In this document: positions 4,309 through 57,584 of the stretch, piece by piece
Layout: every line of letters begins with the position of its first letter
How positions within the stretch are numbered: position 1 is the stretch's first letter
Origin: Candidatus Aminicenantes bacterium
GTDB lineage: Bacteria > Acidobacteriota > Aminicenantia > UBA2199
Assembly: GCA_011049425.1 (NCBI GenBank)
Contig: DSBM01000053.1
Location: forward strand, 3,689 to 67,688
Reading direction: 5' to 3'
DNA: 64,000 bases
Notes under the pieces: model-generated
Database searches by the model: none
Told to the model about the DNA's origin: nothing
What the model saw: only the letters and a program-made list of their open reading frames with translations
Position numbers and translations under genes: made by a program

Positions 4309-4821
4309 TCAATAATGAAGCTGGGAGTTAACGGGATACCGACTGATCCGTTCCCGCCCCTTTAGAAAATCCAGCTCGATCAGGAACTCCACCCCAACCA
4401 CCTTTCCTTTCAAGCGTTCCACCAGACGGATGGACGCCAGCGCCGTACCGCCTGTGGCCAGAAGGTCGTCAACAATTACCACGTGATCGTTCTCGATGAT
4501 GCTGTCGCTGTGGATCTCCAGGGCATTGGTTCCGTATTCGAGCGTGTACTCTTCGCGAATCGTATCCGCCGGCAGTTTATCGGCTTTGCGGGCCAGGACC
4601 AAACCGCAACCCAGGCGGCGGGCCATGGCTCCACCGAAAATGAAACCCCGGGATTCAATGGCCACTATTTTATCGACGGAACCGTTCGCATAGGGGCGGG
4701 TCATCTGTTCCAAGGTCAAGTCAAATGCCCCTGCATCCATCAGCAGGGGGGTGATGTCTTTAAAAATGATCCCCGGTTTGGGAAAATCTGGAATATCCCG
4801 GATAAATGATTCAAGTTGCAT
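4309..4821 (-). CDS. apt: Adenine phosphoribosyltransferase
   Basis: From internal Met MQLESFIRDIPDFPKPGIIFKDITPLL...VVIVDDLLATGGT (PRPP-binding motif). Classic Apt, ~170 aa. Confidence 0.9.
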   Translation of the reverse strand: MQLESFIRDIPDFPKPGIIFKDITPLLMDAGAFDLTLEQMTRPYANGSVDKIVAIESRGFIFGGAMARRLGCGLVLARKADKLPADTIREEYTLEYGTNALEIHSDSIIENDHVVIVDDLLATGGTALASIRLVERLKGKVVGVEFLIELDFLKGRERISRYPVNSQLHY

Positions 4822-4898
4822 TTGCACCTCCTGAAAGCCGGATCGATCTCGATTCACTGCATTCGTGCGCATTCATCTTACTCTAAACCGGCCGGAAA

Positions 4899-6923: not shown

Positions 6924-6998
6924 GATGCTCCTGATTATACACTTACGGAAAAAAAGTTGGAACCCAACTTTTCAGCTTTTCAACCTTTCAACTCTTAT

Positions 6999-12141: not shown

Positions 12142-12320
12142 GCTTTCCACTATACCGCTTCCCCAAATCAGTGGCAACCATATAACATATGTAGAAGGTA
12201 GAGGAATCGCCACAAGCGGCTCAACTCTCCACTTCAGACTTTTGACTTTCAACTTGGTGCTCATGCCACCTGATACCTGCCTGCCCGCCGTAGCCTTGGC
12301 AAAGGCGGGTCACCTTCTTT

Positions 12321-12503
12321 TGCTGTGATGGGAACTTGGGAGAATTTGTGATGAAGATCTTGAGGTCCTGGTGATGAGAACTCATGAGGGCTTGTGATGA
12401 AAACCCATCACAGTGCCTATTAGCGCTTCATCACAGTTCGGCCGGCGATTCAGGGCTGCCCGGCCGGTTTCTTCATCACTATGACTCCCTCGTGGTATCA
12501 CCG
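12321..12503. repeat. Iteron-like array: four direct ~23-bp units with TGTGATGA core, then three to four inverted CATCAC(A/T) units
   Basis: CTGTGATGGGAACTTGGGAGAAT / TTGTGATGAAGATCTTGAGGTCC / TGGTGATGAGAACTCATGAGGGC / TTGTGATGAAAACCCATCACAGT, then ...TTCATCACAG...CTTCATCACT...TATCACC. Confidence 0.6.
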
Positions 12504-12722
12504 TGCTTTAACTTTTCACTTTCAACTTTCGACTTCTTCCCCCCTCAACTCCCTCAACTGATTTTTCCGGGCTGGTATGAAATTCGCCCCATTGTCTTTC
12601 TACCTTCTACATTCTACCTTCTACGGATTTGAGCGCGGCAGAGCAGTGCCACGGGCTCATTGCGCCCTGTGCGGGATCATGATAGAATCCAGCGTGACCC
12701 ATCCGGCCTCCTTAACAAAACA

Positions 12723-14057
12723 ATGGCATCATCCATGAATCCCCCGCAGACCACCGTTTCTTTTATCAGCCTCGGATGTTTCAAGAACACTGTAGACACA
12801 GAGGTTCTGGGGGGCATGCTGACGGAAATGGGAGTCCGCATTGTTTCTTCATACGAAGCGGCGGATTGGATCGTCATCAATACCTGCGGTTTTATTCAAC
12901 CCGCCAAAGAAGAGAGTATCAGTGAAATCCTTTCCGCCCTGGAAATGAAAACGAACGGCGAAGTCCAACATGTGGCGGTTATCGGCTGTTTGGCGGAACG
13001 CTACCTGGAAGAGCTGCGACAAAACTTTCCGGATGTAGACCTGATCTGGGGCGTCAACGATCCCCATAACCTGGCGACTGCTATCGCCCACGATCAACCG
13101 GCGCCGTACGGCAAAATTCCGGTATTTCTGTACGACCACACCCATTCCCGTATCCAGACCACACCACCCAATACCGGCTTTATCAAGATATCCGAAGGTT
13201 GTGACATGAAATGCAACTTCTGCGCCATTCCCGCTATCCGCGGCCCTTACCGTTCCCGGGACATTGAATCCGTGATCCGCGAAGCGGAAACCATGCGCAA
13301 ACGCGGGGTCGCGGAACTCAACCTGATTTCACAGAATTCCACTTACTTCGGACTGGACCACGGCCCCTCCTCCCAACTGCCTGTACTGCTGAAATCACTC
13401 TCCAGCCTGGGCTTCGACTGGATACGCGTTCTATACCTGATGCCTGAAGCGGTTACGGAAGAGATCCTGGAAGGTTTTTCTTATCCCGGCATTCTGCCTT
13501 ACTTCGACCTGCCTCTGCAGCACGTTGCGCCCCCCTTGTTGCGGCGCATGCGCCGCGGCGGTAGCGCAGACACATTCCAACGCCTGATCGAAAAAATCCG
13601 CCGCGATTTTTCCGCGGCAGTGATCCGATCCACCTTTATCACCGGGTTCCCGGGTGAAACGGAAGCACTATTCCAGGAACTCTGCGACTTCGCGCGGGAA
13701 CTCCGGATCGAACGCATCGGCGCATTCGCTTTTTCTCCGGAAGAAGGCACGCCGGCCTTTGACCTGGATGGCCGGGTCCCCCCCGAAGATGCCGTGCTTC
13801 GCCGCGAAGAGTTGATGGACATATCCGATGCCAACCTCGAAGCGTACAACCAACGTATTACCGGTACGGTCCAGTCTTTTCTGCCGGGCGGACCCTCTCC
13901 CTGGGAACAGGAAACCACTCTGGGCCGCATATCCTCCCAGGCTCCGGAAGTGGACGGCCTTACAGAAATCCGCGCTGATCTTTCCATGACCTCCGCCCCG
14001 ATATCCATTCGCATCACCGCTTCCCGTCAAAACATTCTGCAAGGAGAAAGCGCATGA
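12723..14057 (+). CDS. rimO: Ribosomal protein S12 methylthiotransferase (radical SAM MTTase with TRAM domain)
   Basis: ISLGCFKN N-terminal MTTase motif, radical SAM CNFCAIP, C-terminal TRAM. Confidence 0.8.
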   Translation: MASSMNPPQTTVSFISLGCFKNTVDTEVLGGMLTEMGVRIVSSYEAADWIVINTCGFIQPAKEESISEILSALEMKTNGEVQHVAVIGCLAERYLEELRQNFPDVDLIWGVNDPHNLATAIAHDQPAPYGKIPVFLYDHTHSRIQTTPPNTGFIKISEGCDMKCNFCAIPAIRGPYRSRDIESVIREAETMRKRGVAELNLISQNSTYFGLDHGPSSQLPVLLKSLSSLGFDWIRVLYLMPEAVTEEILEGFSYPGILPYFDLPLQHVAPPLLRRMRRGGSADTFQRLIEKIRRDFSAAVIRSTFITGFPGETEALFQELCDFARELRIERIGAFAFSPEEGTPAFDLDGRVPPEDAVLRREELMDISDANLEAYNQRITGTVQSFLPGGPSPWEQETTLGRISSQAPEVDGLTEIRADLSMTSAPISIRITASRQNILQGESA

Positions 14058-30333: not shown

Positions 30334-30367
30334 TCCGATCCCTGCAACCTGCCTCCCAGTCCACATA

Positions 30368-30391
30368 AGGGCGACCGGCCGGTCGCCCCTA
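30368..30391. repeat. REP-like palindromic element GGGCGACCGGCCGGTCGCCCCTAC (copy 1 of 3)
   Basis: Perfect 20-nt palindrome plus a CCCCTAC tail. Identical at 45242-45266; near-identical at 43457-43480. Confidence 0.7.
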
Positions 30392-30454
30392 CATTTTCAA
30401 CTTCTTCCCTTTTATGCCCGAAAGGGTACTCCAACTTTTCAACTTTTTTATCTT

Positions 30455-31429
30455 CTACTTCGCCACGATCCCGCTGCCCAGCCAAGCGATATAGCAGATA
30501 TAGACGGCCAGCAGAAAAGCGCCCTCCCAGCGGTTGATCATTCCGGGACGGCCGCGGAAACCGCGCCCGATCACGAACAGCGAAACCGTGAGCCCGAGCA
30601 TGACCACGCCATCCCGCCATACCACTTCAGGAGCGGTACGAAAAGGGTGGATCACTCCGGCCAGGCCCACCACGGCTAAGGTGTTGAAAAGGTTCGAGCC
30701 CAGGACGTTGCCCAGGGCGATATCGTTCTCGCCTCGACGCACCGCGGCTACGGCGGATGCCAGCTCCGGCAGAGAAGTGCCCAATGCCACGATGGAAAGA
30801 CCGATCACCAGCTCAGACACACCCAGCCCCCGGGCCAGGCGCACGGATCCCCATACCAGCATACGCGAACTGACCGCCAGGAGAACAAGTCCGGCCAGGG
30901 TCCAGGCAACGGCCCGCTGCTTGGGCATGGGGTGGGTTGATAGGTCCACCTCAATTTCCGAGCCAAAGGCATCCGCTCCGGATTGCCGGCCGCTGCGAAT
31001 GGTCCAGGCCATCAGAGATGCAAAAAGCAATAGCAGCACAACCGATTCCCACCTTGCCAGGTTACCGTCCAGTACGAGGCCAATGGCCATAAGCGTGACG
31101 ATCGTCAGGAGGGGAAGTTCGGCGGTTAACACTTTGGAGCGAACCATAACCGGCCGGGCCAGTGCGGCCAATCCCAGGATCAGGGCGATATTGGCGATGT
31201 TCGAACCCCAGCCGTTGCCCAATCCCAGGTCCGGGTTGCCGTCCAGGGCCGCCAGGGTGGACACAATCATTTCCGGCAGCGAAGTTCCGAATCCGACCAC
31301 CACCATGCCGATCAAAAGCGGCGGAAGGCCGGCGTGCTGCGCAGTGGATGAAGCGCCCAGCACAAAACGATCCGCACTCCACGCCAGCAATGCCAATCCG
31401 GCCGCCACGGCCAAACCCGCGGTCCACAT
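30455..31429 (-). CDS. CaCA-family Na+/Ca2+ (cation/Ca2+) antiporter, YrbG-like
   Basis: Two alpha-repeat motifs GTSLPEM...GSNIANI and GTSLPELASA...GSNLFN. Confidence 0.85.
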   Translation of the reverse strand: MWTAGLAVAAGLALLAWSADRFVLGASSTAQHAGLPPLLIGMVVVGFGTSLPEMIVSTLAALDGNPDLGLGNGWGSNIANIALILGLAALARPVMVRSKVLTAELPLLTIVTLMAIGLVLDGNLARWESVVLLLLFASLMAWTIRSGRQSGADAFGSEIEVDLSTHPMPKQRAVAWTLAGLVLLAVSSRMLVWGSVRLARGLGVSELVIGLSIVALGTSLPELASAVAAVRRGENDIALGNVLGSNLFNTLAVVGLAGVIHPFRTAPEVVWRDGVVMLGLTVSLFVIGRGFRGRPGMINRWEGAFLLAVYICYIAWLGSGIVAK

Positions 31430-43419: not shown

Positions 43420-43456
43420 AAAGTTGTTGAGATAGTTGAAGGCGGAGAAACAGAAC

Positions 43457-43480
43457 AGGCGACCAGCCGGTCGCCCCTAC
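43457..43480. repeat. REP-like palindromic element (copy 2, AGGCGACCAGCCGGTCGCCCCTAC)
   Basis: One mismatch relative to copies 1 and 3. Lies in a convergent intergenic region. Confidence 0.65.
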
Positions 43481-43616
43481 ACCTTCCCTCAATAACTTTT
43501 GTCTTTCCTTTGCGCCGGTTTTATGCCTTCTACTTTCGCGACCACCAGCCCCCTGCCACCTGATACCTGTCACCTGCCACATTCTTTCCAACTTCCCCAA
43601 CTCTCCAACTTTTTTT

Positions 43617-45223: not shown

Positions 45224-45241
45224 TGCATTCTCCCCAACTTT

Positions 45242-45266
45242 CGGGCGACCGGCCGGTCGCCCCTAC
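45242..45266. repeat. REP-like palindromic element (copy 3)
   Basis: CGGGCGACCGGCCGGTCGCCCCTAC between the M28 stop and the FISUMP start. Confidence 0.7.
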
Positions 45267-45288
45267 TTTTCTCTTTTATCTTTTCACT

Positions 45289-46875: not shown

Positions 46876-46920
46876 CTCCTCTCTCCTATTCTAGGCCAAA
46901 GAAAGAAAATGTGGAATAAA

Positions 46921-46980
46921 AAGTTGAAGAGTTGGAGCGTGAAAAACCGGCAAGGGGCCAGGGGAAATTGGCGAGGGGGA
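46921..46980 (-). promoter_or_regulatory. Conserved ~60-nt upstream element (copy A) ~50 nt before the M28 peptidase start
   Basis: Coding-strand sequence TCCCCCTCGCCAATTTCCCCTGGCCCCTTGCCGGTTTTTCACGCTCCAACTCTTCAACTT. ~88% identical to copy B. Confidence 0.5.
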
Positions 46981-47045
46981 CAGGAGGAAGGCACTGCCCC
47001 CTCATTCTTTCTCGTTATTCGATATTCAGAACATGCCTTGGCTTT

Positions 47046-47127
47046 TTCATCACAAAGCCCGAAATTTTGCTCATCCACAAGGGGGCCCTTGCGTTCACAT
47101 CACTAGTACGACGAGTTCCCATCACAA
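47046..47127. repeat. Second iteron-like array: four CATC(A/C)ACA units at ~22-25 bp spacing in the divergent M28 / lipoprotein intergenic region
   Basis: TTCATCACAAAG (47046), TCATCCACAAG (47071), TCACATCACTAG (47096), CCCATCACAATA (47118). Confidence 0.55.
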
Positions 47128-47198
47128 TAATGAATTAAACGGCGGTGTTATATTTCTTGCCGATTTGCTAGAATTTGGCCACGACAGGAGGAAACACG

Positions 47199-47807
47199 AT
47201 GAAGAAATTCAAAAGTACACTGGTATTTTGCATCTCATTGCTCTTTTTCACCATGCTGTTCTTTGCCTGCAATGATAACGCCCCCACAGAAGACCCGATG
47301 AATGCAGCGCAGAAAGCGGAAACCGATGTGGATTCGCCGCCGGCCGCTGATGCCGCGCAAACAGCGCCGGCAAGTGAGGGAAAAGCCGTCAGTGGTTGGA
47401 AACAGGTTAATTATGAAGACTTTACTTTCATGATTCCCGCCGATTGGAAGCGGGAAAGCAACACCGACATCTGGTTCCCAAAAACAGAGAGCTTCGACAT
47501 GGGATTACCCTTGATTTCCCTGCAATGCGGGCTGATGCCGATTATGGCCGGCCAGACCGTTGACGAACAGATCAAGGAAATGATTCACGGGTCCGCGCCC
47601 AAAAGCAAAACCGCAGTGGACAAATGCAACATGAGCGGTCATACCTGGGAGGCTCACGACGACTTGAGCCACATGACCCTTACCCTGGAAGATCCACGGG
47701 GTGAAATGATAGCGGTCTATTTCTTTAACTGCCGGGTTCCGCGCAACCAGTTCACCAACTACAAAGAGATCTACCGCAAAATCCTGGATTCCGTGCAGTG
47801 CAACTGA
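47199..47807 (+). CDS. Lipoprotein of unknown function
   Basis: MKKFKSTLVFCISLLFFTMLFFAC lipobox. RBS AGGAGG. Slightly lower GC than the surroundings. Confidence 0.55.
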   Translation: MKKFKSTLVFCISLLFFTMLFFACNDNAPTEDPMNAAQKAETDVDSPPAADAAQTAPASEGKAVSGWKQVNYEDFTFMIPADWKRESNTDIWFPKTESFDMGLPLISLQCGLMPIMAGQTVDEQIKEMIHGSAPKSKTAVDKCNMSGHTWEAHDDLSHMTLTLEDPRGEMIAVYFFNCRVPRNQFTNYKEIYRKILDSVQCN

Positions 47808-50234: not shown

Positions 50235-50424
50235 CTGATTATACCTCTGCCCGGAATAATCTCAAAAAAAAACAAAACTATCAACCCCCGCAAACGAAAC
50301 CCAAGCGTTCCATCACTTTCCGATCAGGATGTTCTGCCTTCTGCCACCTGTCTGTCCTTGTAGAAGGTAGAAAGTAGAAAAACGCATTGGGGCTGCTTTC
50401 GGCTTTATGCTTTCGACTGAATTG

Positions 50425-50484
50425 TCCCCCTCGCCACTTGCCTATGGCCCCTTGCCGGTTTTTCACTCTCCAACTTTCCAACTT
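50425..50484 (+). promoter_or_regulatory. Conserved ~60-nt upstream element (copy B) ~45 nt before the membrane-protein gene start
   Basis: TCCCCCTCGCCACTTGCCTATGGCCCCTTGCCGGTTTTTCACTCTCCAACTTTCCAACTT, followed by TATAAT at 50497-50502. Confidence 0.5.
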
Positions 50485-50526
50485 TATTTTTATTGCGCTA
50501 TAATATCCCTATTCGGAGGTCATCAC

Positions 50527-51306
50527 ATGCCGGACAAAGGAACCAAGAAAAAAGTCGTTCGTGTGGAAAGCCCGGAATCATCCGGGAAAGAAGTCAGTAA
50601 AGGCCGGGCGTTTACTCCCGCCCCGGAAGCCAAAAAGCGCGCGGGCAAAAAACGCCTGCTAGCGATCCTCTCCTGGATCGTGGCCATCGCCTGCGAAGCC
50701 GGAGCCATTTACCTGCTCCTGAAACCGCCCATCAACACCACCTGGCTGATCGTGCTGATCGCCGTGGACCTGGTATTTGTCGTGATCGGCTCGTTGCTGT
50801 GGAAAAAAGCCAACCGCCTGGATCCCGCCTCGGAGAAAGAGAAAGTCAGGTTCTTTGTGCAGAACCAGTTGGGCGTCATCATCGCCGTCATCGCTTTCCT
50901 GCCCCTGGTCATCCTCATTTTTACCAACAAGGACTTGACCGGTAAACAAAAGGGCCTGGTGGGAACCATCGCGATCATCGCCCTGGTCATTGCCGGCGTC
51001 ATGGGCGTGGACCTCAACCCGCCCTCCCAGGAACAGTACGCCGCGCAAACGGCCGAAGTTGAGTCTCTGACGGGGGGCCGCGACTTTGTTTACTGGACCA
51101 AGTCCGGCACCAAGTACCACATCTATTCCGATTGCCACGCCATCAACCGCAAGGTGACGGACCAGATCTTTGAGGGCACGGTGGCGCAGGCGCGGGAACT
51201 CAAGAACATCACCGAGTTGTGCAGCTTCTGCAGGAGCCGGGCGGAAAAAGAAAAGCAACTGCAACCCGCCCAGACCCCGGACAGCACCGAGGTGCAACAG
51301 GAATAG
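50527..51306 (+). CDS. Membrane protein (4 TM) with C-terminal Cys/His-containing domain, unknown function
   Basis: Start MPDKGTKKK with RBS GGAGG. Lys-rich N-terminus, four TM helices, C-terminal YHIYSDCH...CSFC. Confidence 0.55.
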   Translation: MPDKGTKKKVVRVESPESSGKEVSKGRAFTPAPEAKKRAGKKRLLAILSWIVAIACEAGAIYLLLKPPINTTWLIVLIAVDLVFVVIGSLLWKKANRLDPASEKEKVRFFVQNQLGVIIAVIAFLPLVILIFTNKDLTGKQKGLVGTIAIIALVIAGVMGVDLNPPSQEQYAAQTAEVESLTGGRDFVYWTKSGTKYHIYSDCHAINRKVTDQIFEGTVAQARELKNITELCSFCRSRAEKEKQLQPAQTPDSTEVQQE

Positions 51307-57267: not shown

Positions 57268-57584
57268 TTCTTGCTCCAGGTACGTGATCTCTTTGGCGAA
57301 AACGATGCACCACGTCCCCCCCTTCATACCATGGAAAACCCGCGCGCGGACCTGGCCCTTGCGAAGTAAAGCAGACGGGCCGCAACCGCGTTTGTGGATA
57401 AAAACAGTTGAAGAGTTGAAGAGGAGGGAAGTTGAACAAGTTGAGGAGACTGGAAAGTAACTTTATACGTTTATACGCACCGGCCCCAAGTTTTTTTTCG
57501 TGCCTTATTCCTTCTTCGTTATTCCTTATTCAGAGCTTTGTCCTGTCACCTGTCTTCTGGTCTCCTGCCACCTTCTTTTTACTT

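Follow-up and report, generated by a model that had tools for sequence, protein, structure and literature searches.

CATCACA repeat arms in two divergent intergenic regions of a Candidatus Aminicenantes bacterium: a species-restricted interspersed repeat with candidate protein-docking cores

Here we describe an array of short phased repeats with the core CATCACA, which lies between the divergent genes xseA and rimO in a 64-kb stretch of DNA that we refer to in full as the window. The array is genuine, and its clustering is far greater than chance would give. It was inserted between two housekeeping genes that can do without it, a second copy of the repeat is found elsewhere in the window, only the core is conserved among the units, and there is neither a fold common to the copies nor a replicon context. 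Judging from the sequence, we hold with a probability of about 0.45 that this is a lineage-restricted dispersed intergenic repeat whose phased cores may dock a DNA-binding protein. The main rival, and a serious one, is that the array is decaying selfish or duplicated DNA, which we consider possible without expecting it.

The four direct units described in the earlier note are present, with GTGATG on the + strand at 12325, 12348, 12371 and 12394 and a period of exactly 23 bp. The inverted copies are also real, namely CATCAC at 12406, 12429 and 12474 and a degenerate TATCAC at 12494 on the + strand, but the intervals between them measure 23, 45 and 20 bp and not the 27-35 bp that had been given. 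As a whole the array forms a large, imperfect palindrome whose centre is at 12402/12403 (TGTGATGaaaaccCATCACA), with the following parts.

12324..12401, + strand: left arm, four direct units with the core TGTGATG(R), from the sequence and repeat family D1
12393..12412, no strand: centre of symmetry, a perfect 7-6-7 palindrome TGTGATG-aaaacc-CATCACA, from the sequence
12404..12501, + strand: right arm, with the three CATCAC cores and TATCAC listed above, from the sequence
12440..12467, no strand: GC-rich hairpin GGCCGG...CCGGCC, from the sequence and folding

The left arm has a super-period of 46 bp (31 nt, 77% identity, family D1), and in the right arm the hairpin at 12440-12467 fills the slot of the missing unit, the fifth one expected. 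Seven of the 47 GTGATG/CATCAC hexamers of the 64-kb window fall within 155 bp, where 0.11 would be expected (Poisson P ~4e-11). Across the window the octamer TGTGATGA occurs 7 times, against 1.98 +/- 1.46 in shuffled sequences, and 3 of the 7 occurrences are inside the array; CTCATGAG is located at 12381. Two further assemblies of this organism (L023 and L025) have exactly the same sequence over the whole gap between xseA and rimO, so the array is not an assembly artefact. None of the open reading frames of the array region is preserved in L026, a relative that carries part of the array. An 82-codon frame at 12384-12632 is disrupted there by indels, and a series of tandem mini-ORFs (ATG, six codons and TGA per 23-bp unit, overlapping as UGAUG) was rejected as the automatic outcome of a GTGATGA word at a 23-bp period; its peptides are not conserved.

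The array sits between xseA on the - strand (PF02601, PF13742) and rimO on the + strand (PF00919, PF04055), a divergent pair whose synteny is conserved across six lineages. Among public genomes the nearest are MAGs of Candidatus Aminicenantes, whose RimO proteins are 86% and 77% identical. With the start of xseA at ATG 12141 and that of rimO at ATG 12735, the latter agreeing with the 440-aa protein on record, the intergenic gap measures about 593 bp (12142-12734) and not 450 bp as reported at first. Each gene has a predicted core promoter close to its start.

12149..12177, - strand: xseA core promoter TTGCCA-17-TATAGT, from a consensus scan, conserved in L001 and L002
12660..12688, + strand: rimO core promoter TTGCGC-17-TAGAAT, conserved in L001, L002, L026, L148 and L152

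The predicted -10 element of xseA, TATAGT, ends 7 nt before ATG 12141, so that its mRNA would be nearly leaderless. The consensus scan found no further promoter inside the insert or in the flanking segments. Two features of the genes themselves may be recorded here. XseA carries an extra N-terminal part of about 85 aa (residues 1-87) before the OB fold, which has no Pfam match and whose beginning is kept in L001 and L002. The region upstream of rimO (12700-12737) is without an AGGAG Shine-Dalgarno sequence, and L001 and L026 carry AGGAG 8-13 nt upstream of the same ATG.

Comparison with relatives showed that the array belongs to a lineage-specific insertion, which the earlier note had missed. 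In L001, the closest full-length relative, the junction between the promoters reads ...GTAGAAGGTAGAG|CAGCGCC..., and the window splits the same junction by about 437 bp.

12205..12641, no strand: mosaic segment of about 437 bp, absent from L001, from comparison with short gaps

At its edges this insert has GGTAGAG (left) and GGCAGAG (right), which make up an imperfect direct repeat of 7 bp, and no target-site duplication flanks the edges of the array itself at 12324 and 12501. As to conservation of the region, which had been put forward as a point to check, the right arm is kept in L026, and the array is absent at the orthologous site in L001, L002, L148, L152 and L154. The gaps compare as follows.

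Window: RimO 100%, gap 593 bp, CATCACA array present
L026: RimO 89%, contig begins within the gap, right arm present
L001: RimO 86%, gap ~150 bp, CATCACA array absent
L002: RimO 77%, gap ~700 bp filled by other modules, CATCACA array absent
L148-151: RimO 75%, gap 188 bp, CATCACA array absent
L152: RimO 73%, gap 316 bp with other modules, CATCACA array absent
L154: RimO 70%, gap 124 bp, CATCACA array absent

L026 is a 1.7-kb contig of 1.6x coverage, recombinant or possibly chimeric, which begins exactly at the centre of the palindrome. Its right arm and the adjacent ACTTTCA module match the window at 133 of 139 positions (95.7%), with one of the six substitutions hitting a core, and after the ACTTTCA module (~12541), before the rimO promoter, it diverges by module replacement. 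Could the high identity be a sign of selection? We rejected this, as the third codon positions of the rimO sequence alongside are 92-94% identical to the window in the first 300 nt (52-82% further downstream). The identity of the array in L026 is no better than the local synonymous rate and one core is hit, so purifying selection is unsupported either way. The contig with an XseA homologue that we checked for the left arm of the L026 lineage contains only the C-terminal part of xseA.

The second observation absent from the earlier note is a paralogous arm at 47 kb. Using a PWM built from the units (yTyyCATCACAr), with a score of 14 or more counted as strong, we found strong matches within the 64 kb only in the two arrays and at one isolated coding site. 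No array was detected by the PWM in about 9.7 kb of additional contig sequence of this genome or in about 120 kb from relatives, so that within the ~74 kb of this genome that was covered there are two loci and three arms.

47040..47127, + strand: paralogous four-unit arm with cores at 47048, 47074 (CATCCAC), 47098 and 47120, from the PWM and alignment

The four units of this arm are on the same strand at spacings of 26, 24 and 22 bp, and its outer and inner units (AGTTCCCATCACA and TTTTCATCACAA(A)GCCC) match the reverse-complemented left arm. Between the left arm and the 47-kb arm the similarity extends beyond the cores, since only 1 of 1000 shuffles of the spacers with the cores fixed reached the observed score, whereas the right arm has only the cores in common with these two. 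Over ten units the 10-nt core (yyCATCACAr) is 79% identical in pairwise comparisons, against 28-33%, which is about random, for the 13-nt spacers.

The 47-kb arm is located in another divergent intergenic region (46876-47199). It ends about 45 bp before the extended -10 element TGcTAGAAT (47166-47174) of a gene starting at 47199, whose predicted promoter has this extended -10 and no good -35, and relative to that promoter the cores lie near -58, -80, -105 and -130. The arm is also upstream of the conserved promoter of an M28-peptidase gene and is therefore outside the transcript of that gene. Folding of the arm gave nothing significant on either strand (z = -0.08 and -1.28). As for relatives, the contig nearest to the window stops 194 nt before the M28 gene is reached, short of the position of the array, and more distant relatives have different neighbour genes at this locus.

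Around the array the insert is a mosaic of other short repeats. The CTCAACT and TTCTAC modules, presented before as features of this locus, are indeed tandem repeats, but they are dispersed genome-wide and not specific to it.

12189..12202, + strand: GTAGAAG heptamer module, forming a perfect 14-bp inverted repeat with 12599-12612
12221..12257, + strand: CTCAACT / ACTTTCA module left of the array, a direct repeat of 12506-12559 (families D2 and D4)
12506..12559, + strand: ACTTTCA tandem module with two copies of CCCTCAACT, right of the array, present in L026 to ~12541
12598..12624, + strand: TTCTACC heptamer tandem module of 3.9 copies, partner of 12189-12202, from a repeat search

The TTCTACC/GTAGAAG heptamer recurs at 50359-50379 as well as in L002 and L160, and further copies of the CACCTGATACCTG module are found at 43554 and in L002, L152 and L160. 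Most true intergenic regions contain CAACTTT(T) repeats, which in three promoters judged by eye abut or form the -35 element (TTCCAA/TTCCAC). More generally, tandem modules of the types CAACTTT(T), CTTCTAC, CCACCTG and TTATTCC, G-poor on one strand, occupy most of the true intergenic regions; they were seen at 6924-6998, 30367-30533, 43420-43616, 45224-45288, 46876-47199, 50235-50527 and 57440-57584. The contigs of several assemblies, including those of relatives, end within these module-rich regions.

A REP-like element, GGGCGACCGGCCGGTCGCCCCTAC, occurs in the window at 30369-30392, 43458-43481 and 45243-45266 and in L157 at 1798-1821, and in L158, upstream of the M28 gene, GGGCAATTCGTGAATTGCCCCTAC and GGGCGTATGCCATACGCCCCTAC have an altered yet self-complementary stem and keep the CCCCTAC tail. 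A 63-bp inverted duplicate, 89% identical, is found at 46920-46982 and 50423-50485, where it abuts the -35 elements (TTCCAC / TTCCAA) of the M28-peptidase gene and of a gene starting at 50528, and it may be an upstream regulatory module common to both. A composite module, CTTATTCCTTCTTCGTTATTCCTTATTCAGAGCTTTGTCCTGTCACCTG..., is present in the window at 57503-57575, in L160 (4 copies) and in L002 at 4806-4835; its copies are 86-100% identical at non-orthologous intergenic sites, in species whose proteins are only ~74-77% identical.

How might these observations fit together? We propose as the repeat unit an arm some 85-100 bp long that carries four cores of 10-12 nt (yTyyCATCACAr), 20-26 bp apart and separated by unconstrained spacers. 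At 12.3 kb two such arms face each other across a 6-bp centre, within a module mosaic of about 437 bp that was inserted between the xseA and rimO core promoters after the split from the nearest fully sampled relative, and the third arm, at 47.0 kb, lies directly upstream of another promoter. The cores could then serve as a DNA-level platform with several sites for one sequence-specific protein, either a regulator or a nucleoid-associated protein, and the bound protein would sit upstream of promoters, in the 47-kb copy between about -58 and -130, while the module itself would spread and turn over like other interspersed bacterial repeats. We infer such a docking platform from ten or more intact cores against randomised spacers, from the spacing of about two helical turns, from the position of the sites outside the inferred transcripts and from the one copy at typical upstream-activator positions. 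Of the functions suggested in the earlier note, phased sites for cooperative protein binding seem to be the best reading, and here too the core-versus-spacer conservation and the non-palindromic second copy upstream of a promoter point in this direction. Several facts count against it. A Pfam search of ~40 window proteins found no regulator gene next to either array, more than 140 bp separates the arms at 12.3 kb from each of the core promoters, the spacing varies over 20-26 bp with 23 bp being a non-integral number of helical turns, and the exact 23-bp period of the left arm is explicable by a recent 46-bp tandem duplication. A broader proposal is that the CATCACA arms, perhaps together with all the heptamer and octamer modules, are recognition arrays of a lineage-specific DNA-binding system, such as a nucleoid-associated or RHH/ParB-like protein or a domesticated transposase, which would organise or insulate promoter-upstream regions. 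We regard this as unlikely; if true, it would amount to a BIME-like regulatory mosaic, undescribed so far in an uncultivated phylum.

The arms might instead be decaying copies of a formerly mobile or duplicated element (MITE-like, REPIN-like or a transposon-end relic) or the outcome of plain tandem and inverted duplication within an intergenic stretch that is hypervariable, in which case the conserved core would reflect an ancestral internal repeat or gene conversion and not present-day binding. This is the serious rival mentioned above, a doubtful but substantial possibility, and much of what we found suits it: the presence or absence of the array among close relatives and the fast module turnover beside it, the 46-bp tandem duplication in the left arm, the insert edges with their imperfect 7-bp direct repeat, the divergence of L026, which is close to the local neutral rate and includes a hit in one core, contig breaks in several assemblies as would be expected of multi-copy repeats, and two loci per ~74 kb, which would extrapolate to many genomic copies. 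What it explains poorly is that the spacers are at random identity while ten cores are nearly intact, which would be hard to obtain from the neutral decay of one ancestral unit. Transposon ends of the Tn7/Mu type begin with TGT, and so does the outer unit TGTGATGGGAACT, which contains GGGAACT; we rejected this candidate nevertheless, because the unit order of the right arm is wrong, its GGG-type unit being innermost and not terminal, the array edges lack a target-site duplication and no transposase was found. Neither a transposase nor an integrase or RAYT is encoded among the ~40 window proteins scanned. With regard to MITE criteria, the arms are inverted yet alike only in their cores, and the 437-bp insert is bordered by the imperfect GGTAGAG/GGCAGAG pair.

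Structure, replication and inversion offer further readings. The palindrome at 12.3 kb could act as a hairpin RNA (a small RNA or a processing or stability element) or as a DNA cruciform that absorbs negative supercoiling arising between the two divergent promoters. Its fold does beat shuffled sequences, with z = -4.35 for the - strand and -2.58 for the + strand as RNA and z = -3.16 as DNA. T-rich tails follow two + strand hairpins (12284-12322 and 12440-12475), and one L026 substitution in the 12440-12467 stem retains a G-U pair on the + strand. A low folding energy is, however, automatic with repeated complementary cores, the arms pair only at the cores, no promoter is predicted inside the insert, and the homologue at 47 kb, a single arm, is unstructured, so a fold is not what the copies have in common; in this comparison of folds the sole orthologue of the array, in L026, covers one arm. 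Rfam gave no match at the gathering score in the window, and its E-value mode returned only sR14 (12.6 bits, E = 0.97), a chance C/D-box. The structured non-coding RNA proposed in the earlier note is thus improbable, given the empty Rfam search, the consensus scan without an internal promoter and the second copy without a significant fold, and we rate action by structure in general as quite improbable. We give even less credit to Rep iterons of the plasmid type, to an origin or terminus of the chromosome, or to a centromere-like partition site. In iteron plasmids direct iterons are followed by inverted operator copies, and four direct repeats phased at 23 bp and then inverted copies do recall this layout. 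The core CATCACA also matches 6 of the 7 positions of the WATCACW heptad bound by omega of pSM19035 (PMC9499535), but omega sites need four or more contiguous heptads and the cores here are ~23 bp apart. The context argues against replication or partition throughout: the neighbours are xseA and rimO, in a chromosomal synteny conserved in six lineages; the Pfam search of the ~40 window proteins gave no Rep, Par or initiator; sister species lack the segment entirely; and only a 10-nt core is conserved, whereas an iteron origin has three or more direct repeats of 17-22 bp that are alike along the entire unit. There is no DnaA box (TTATCCACA with one mismatch or fewer) in 12142-12734, no AT-rich element beside the repeats (GC is 0.50-0.52 throughout) and no GC-skew switch, the skew being negative on both sides at the 4-kb scale, and blastn against the PLSDB plasmids and INPHARED phages found no similarity. 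The iteron or origin reading, offered at first on the strength of the phasing, is therefore very unlikely for want of a rep gene, DnaA box, AT-rich element, skew switch and plasmid or phage context. Over the whole window, DnaA-box-like 9-mers of the same definition number 28, against 9.8 +/- 2.6 in shuffled sequences; they are scattered, mostly in coding sequence, with none in the 12.3-kb gap. Just as improbable is an invertible, phase-variable segment in which the perfect 14-bp inverted repeats at 12189-12202 and 12599-12612 (pair I3), 396 bp apart in a promoter region, would be recombinase sites bounding a 396-bp cassette. These repeats are two copies of the dispersed GTAGAAG module, which other loci and other species have as well, the search for a recombinase gene nearby was negative, and the orientation is the same in three assemblies, with contig breaks at 12403 and 12465, away from the inverted repeats.

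To place the docking-repeat reading among described systems, it is useful to compare architectures. In theta plasmids (mini-F, pPS10, R6K, RK2) the iterons repeat directly every ~22-23 bp and partial copies in inverted orientation come after them, and the array resembles these iterons in its four direct repeats and inverted partial copies, but differs in being chromosomal with conserved synteny, in having no rep gene, DnaA box or AT-rich region, and in the restriction of conservation to a 10-nt core. Arrays for LytTR- or AraC/XylS-type activators consist of direct repeats with a period of ~21-22 bp that abut the -35 region. The array shares with them a direct repeat of 9-12 nt about every two turns, and the 47-kb arm, whose end is about 45-60 bp upstream of a promoter, fits in position; unlike them, it has four sites per arm where they have two, a spacing of 20-26 bp and no adjacent cognate regulator gene, and the 12.3-kb arms are away from any recognisable promoter. 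The operators and parS sites of omega (RHH ParB) of pSM19035 are built of 7-10 contiguous WATCACW heptads, and contiguity is required (PMC9499535). They have in common with the array the core ATCAC(A) and the mixing of direct and inverted orientations, in contrast to which the cores here are 20-26 bp apart and neither an omega-like gene nor one for ParA was seen. STAR elements of Staphylococcus aureus have a 14-bp GC-rich core at a spacing of 40 bp or more; related species differ in where the elements lie, and neither a function nor a way of spreading is known for them (PMC3532100). In architecture only, the array is similar, with a short conserved core, variable spacers, several intergenic loci and locations that differ between species, but the core CATCACA is unrelated, the spacing is ~23 bp, there are four-unit arms and one inverted pair, and the phylum is different. 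REP/BIME elements of proteobacteria form intergenic, species-specific mosaics of fast turnover and are known protein-binding sites (PMC2817692). The 437-bp segment likewise combines short dispersed modules whose order and orientation vary, although the CATCACA units are not GC-rich palindromes. On this comparison, STAR elements and REP/BIME mosaics appear to be the closest described architecture, without any sequence relationship.

Some other candidates were discarded. A CRP-type TGTGA-N6-TCACA site has the wrong spacing (N10) and a sigma-54 promoter fails in its GG/GC elements and their spacing, both judged by eye; a C/D-box or K-turn would rest on the Rfam match with E = 0.97 in a bacterium; and the lambda-operator half-site TATCACCG is a single degenerate unit. 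The 80 matches listed for the metagenome pattern CATCACA N35-48 CATCAC N10-18 CCCATCACA were all unrelated by blastn and mostly coding sequence or simple repeats. Scans of viral contigs found only perfect 23-bp tandem repeats with GTGATG and one chance-like match, none of them homologous. Several of the IMG/VR phage contigs (L163-L172) carry such perfect tandem 23-bp GTGATG units, unrelated to the array of the window, with up to ~19 tandem copies in IMGVR_UViG_3300049221_000011.

The array is a species-restricted interspersed repeat and as such a modest finding, with its value mainly as a marker. The analysis also removes a false lead: the array is neither an origin nor the remnant of a plasmid, nor is it a known RNA. 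More broadly, the intergenic DNA of this Aminicenantes lineage is made up of a small vocabulary of short dispersed modules. Their turnover far outpaces that of the genes on either side, they appear in several species at sites that are not orthologous, and metagenome assemblies break at them. Should a protein indeed bind the phased CATCACA cores, these would be a defined cis element in a phylum without a cultured representative or known regulatory motifs.
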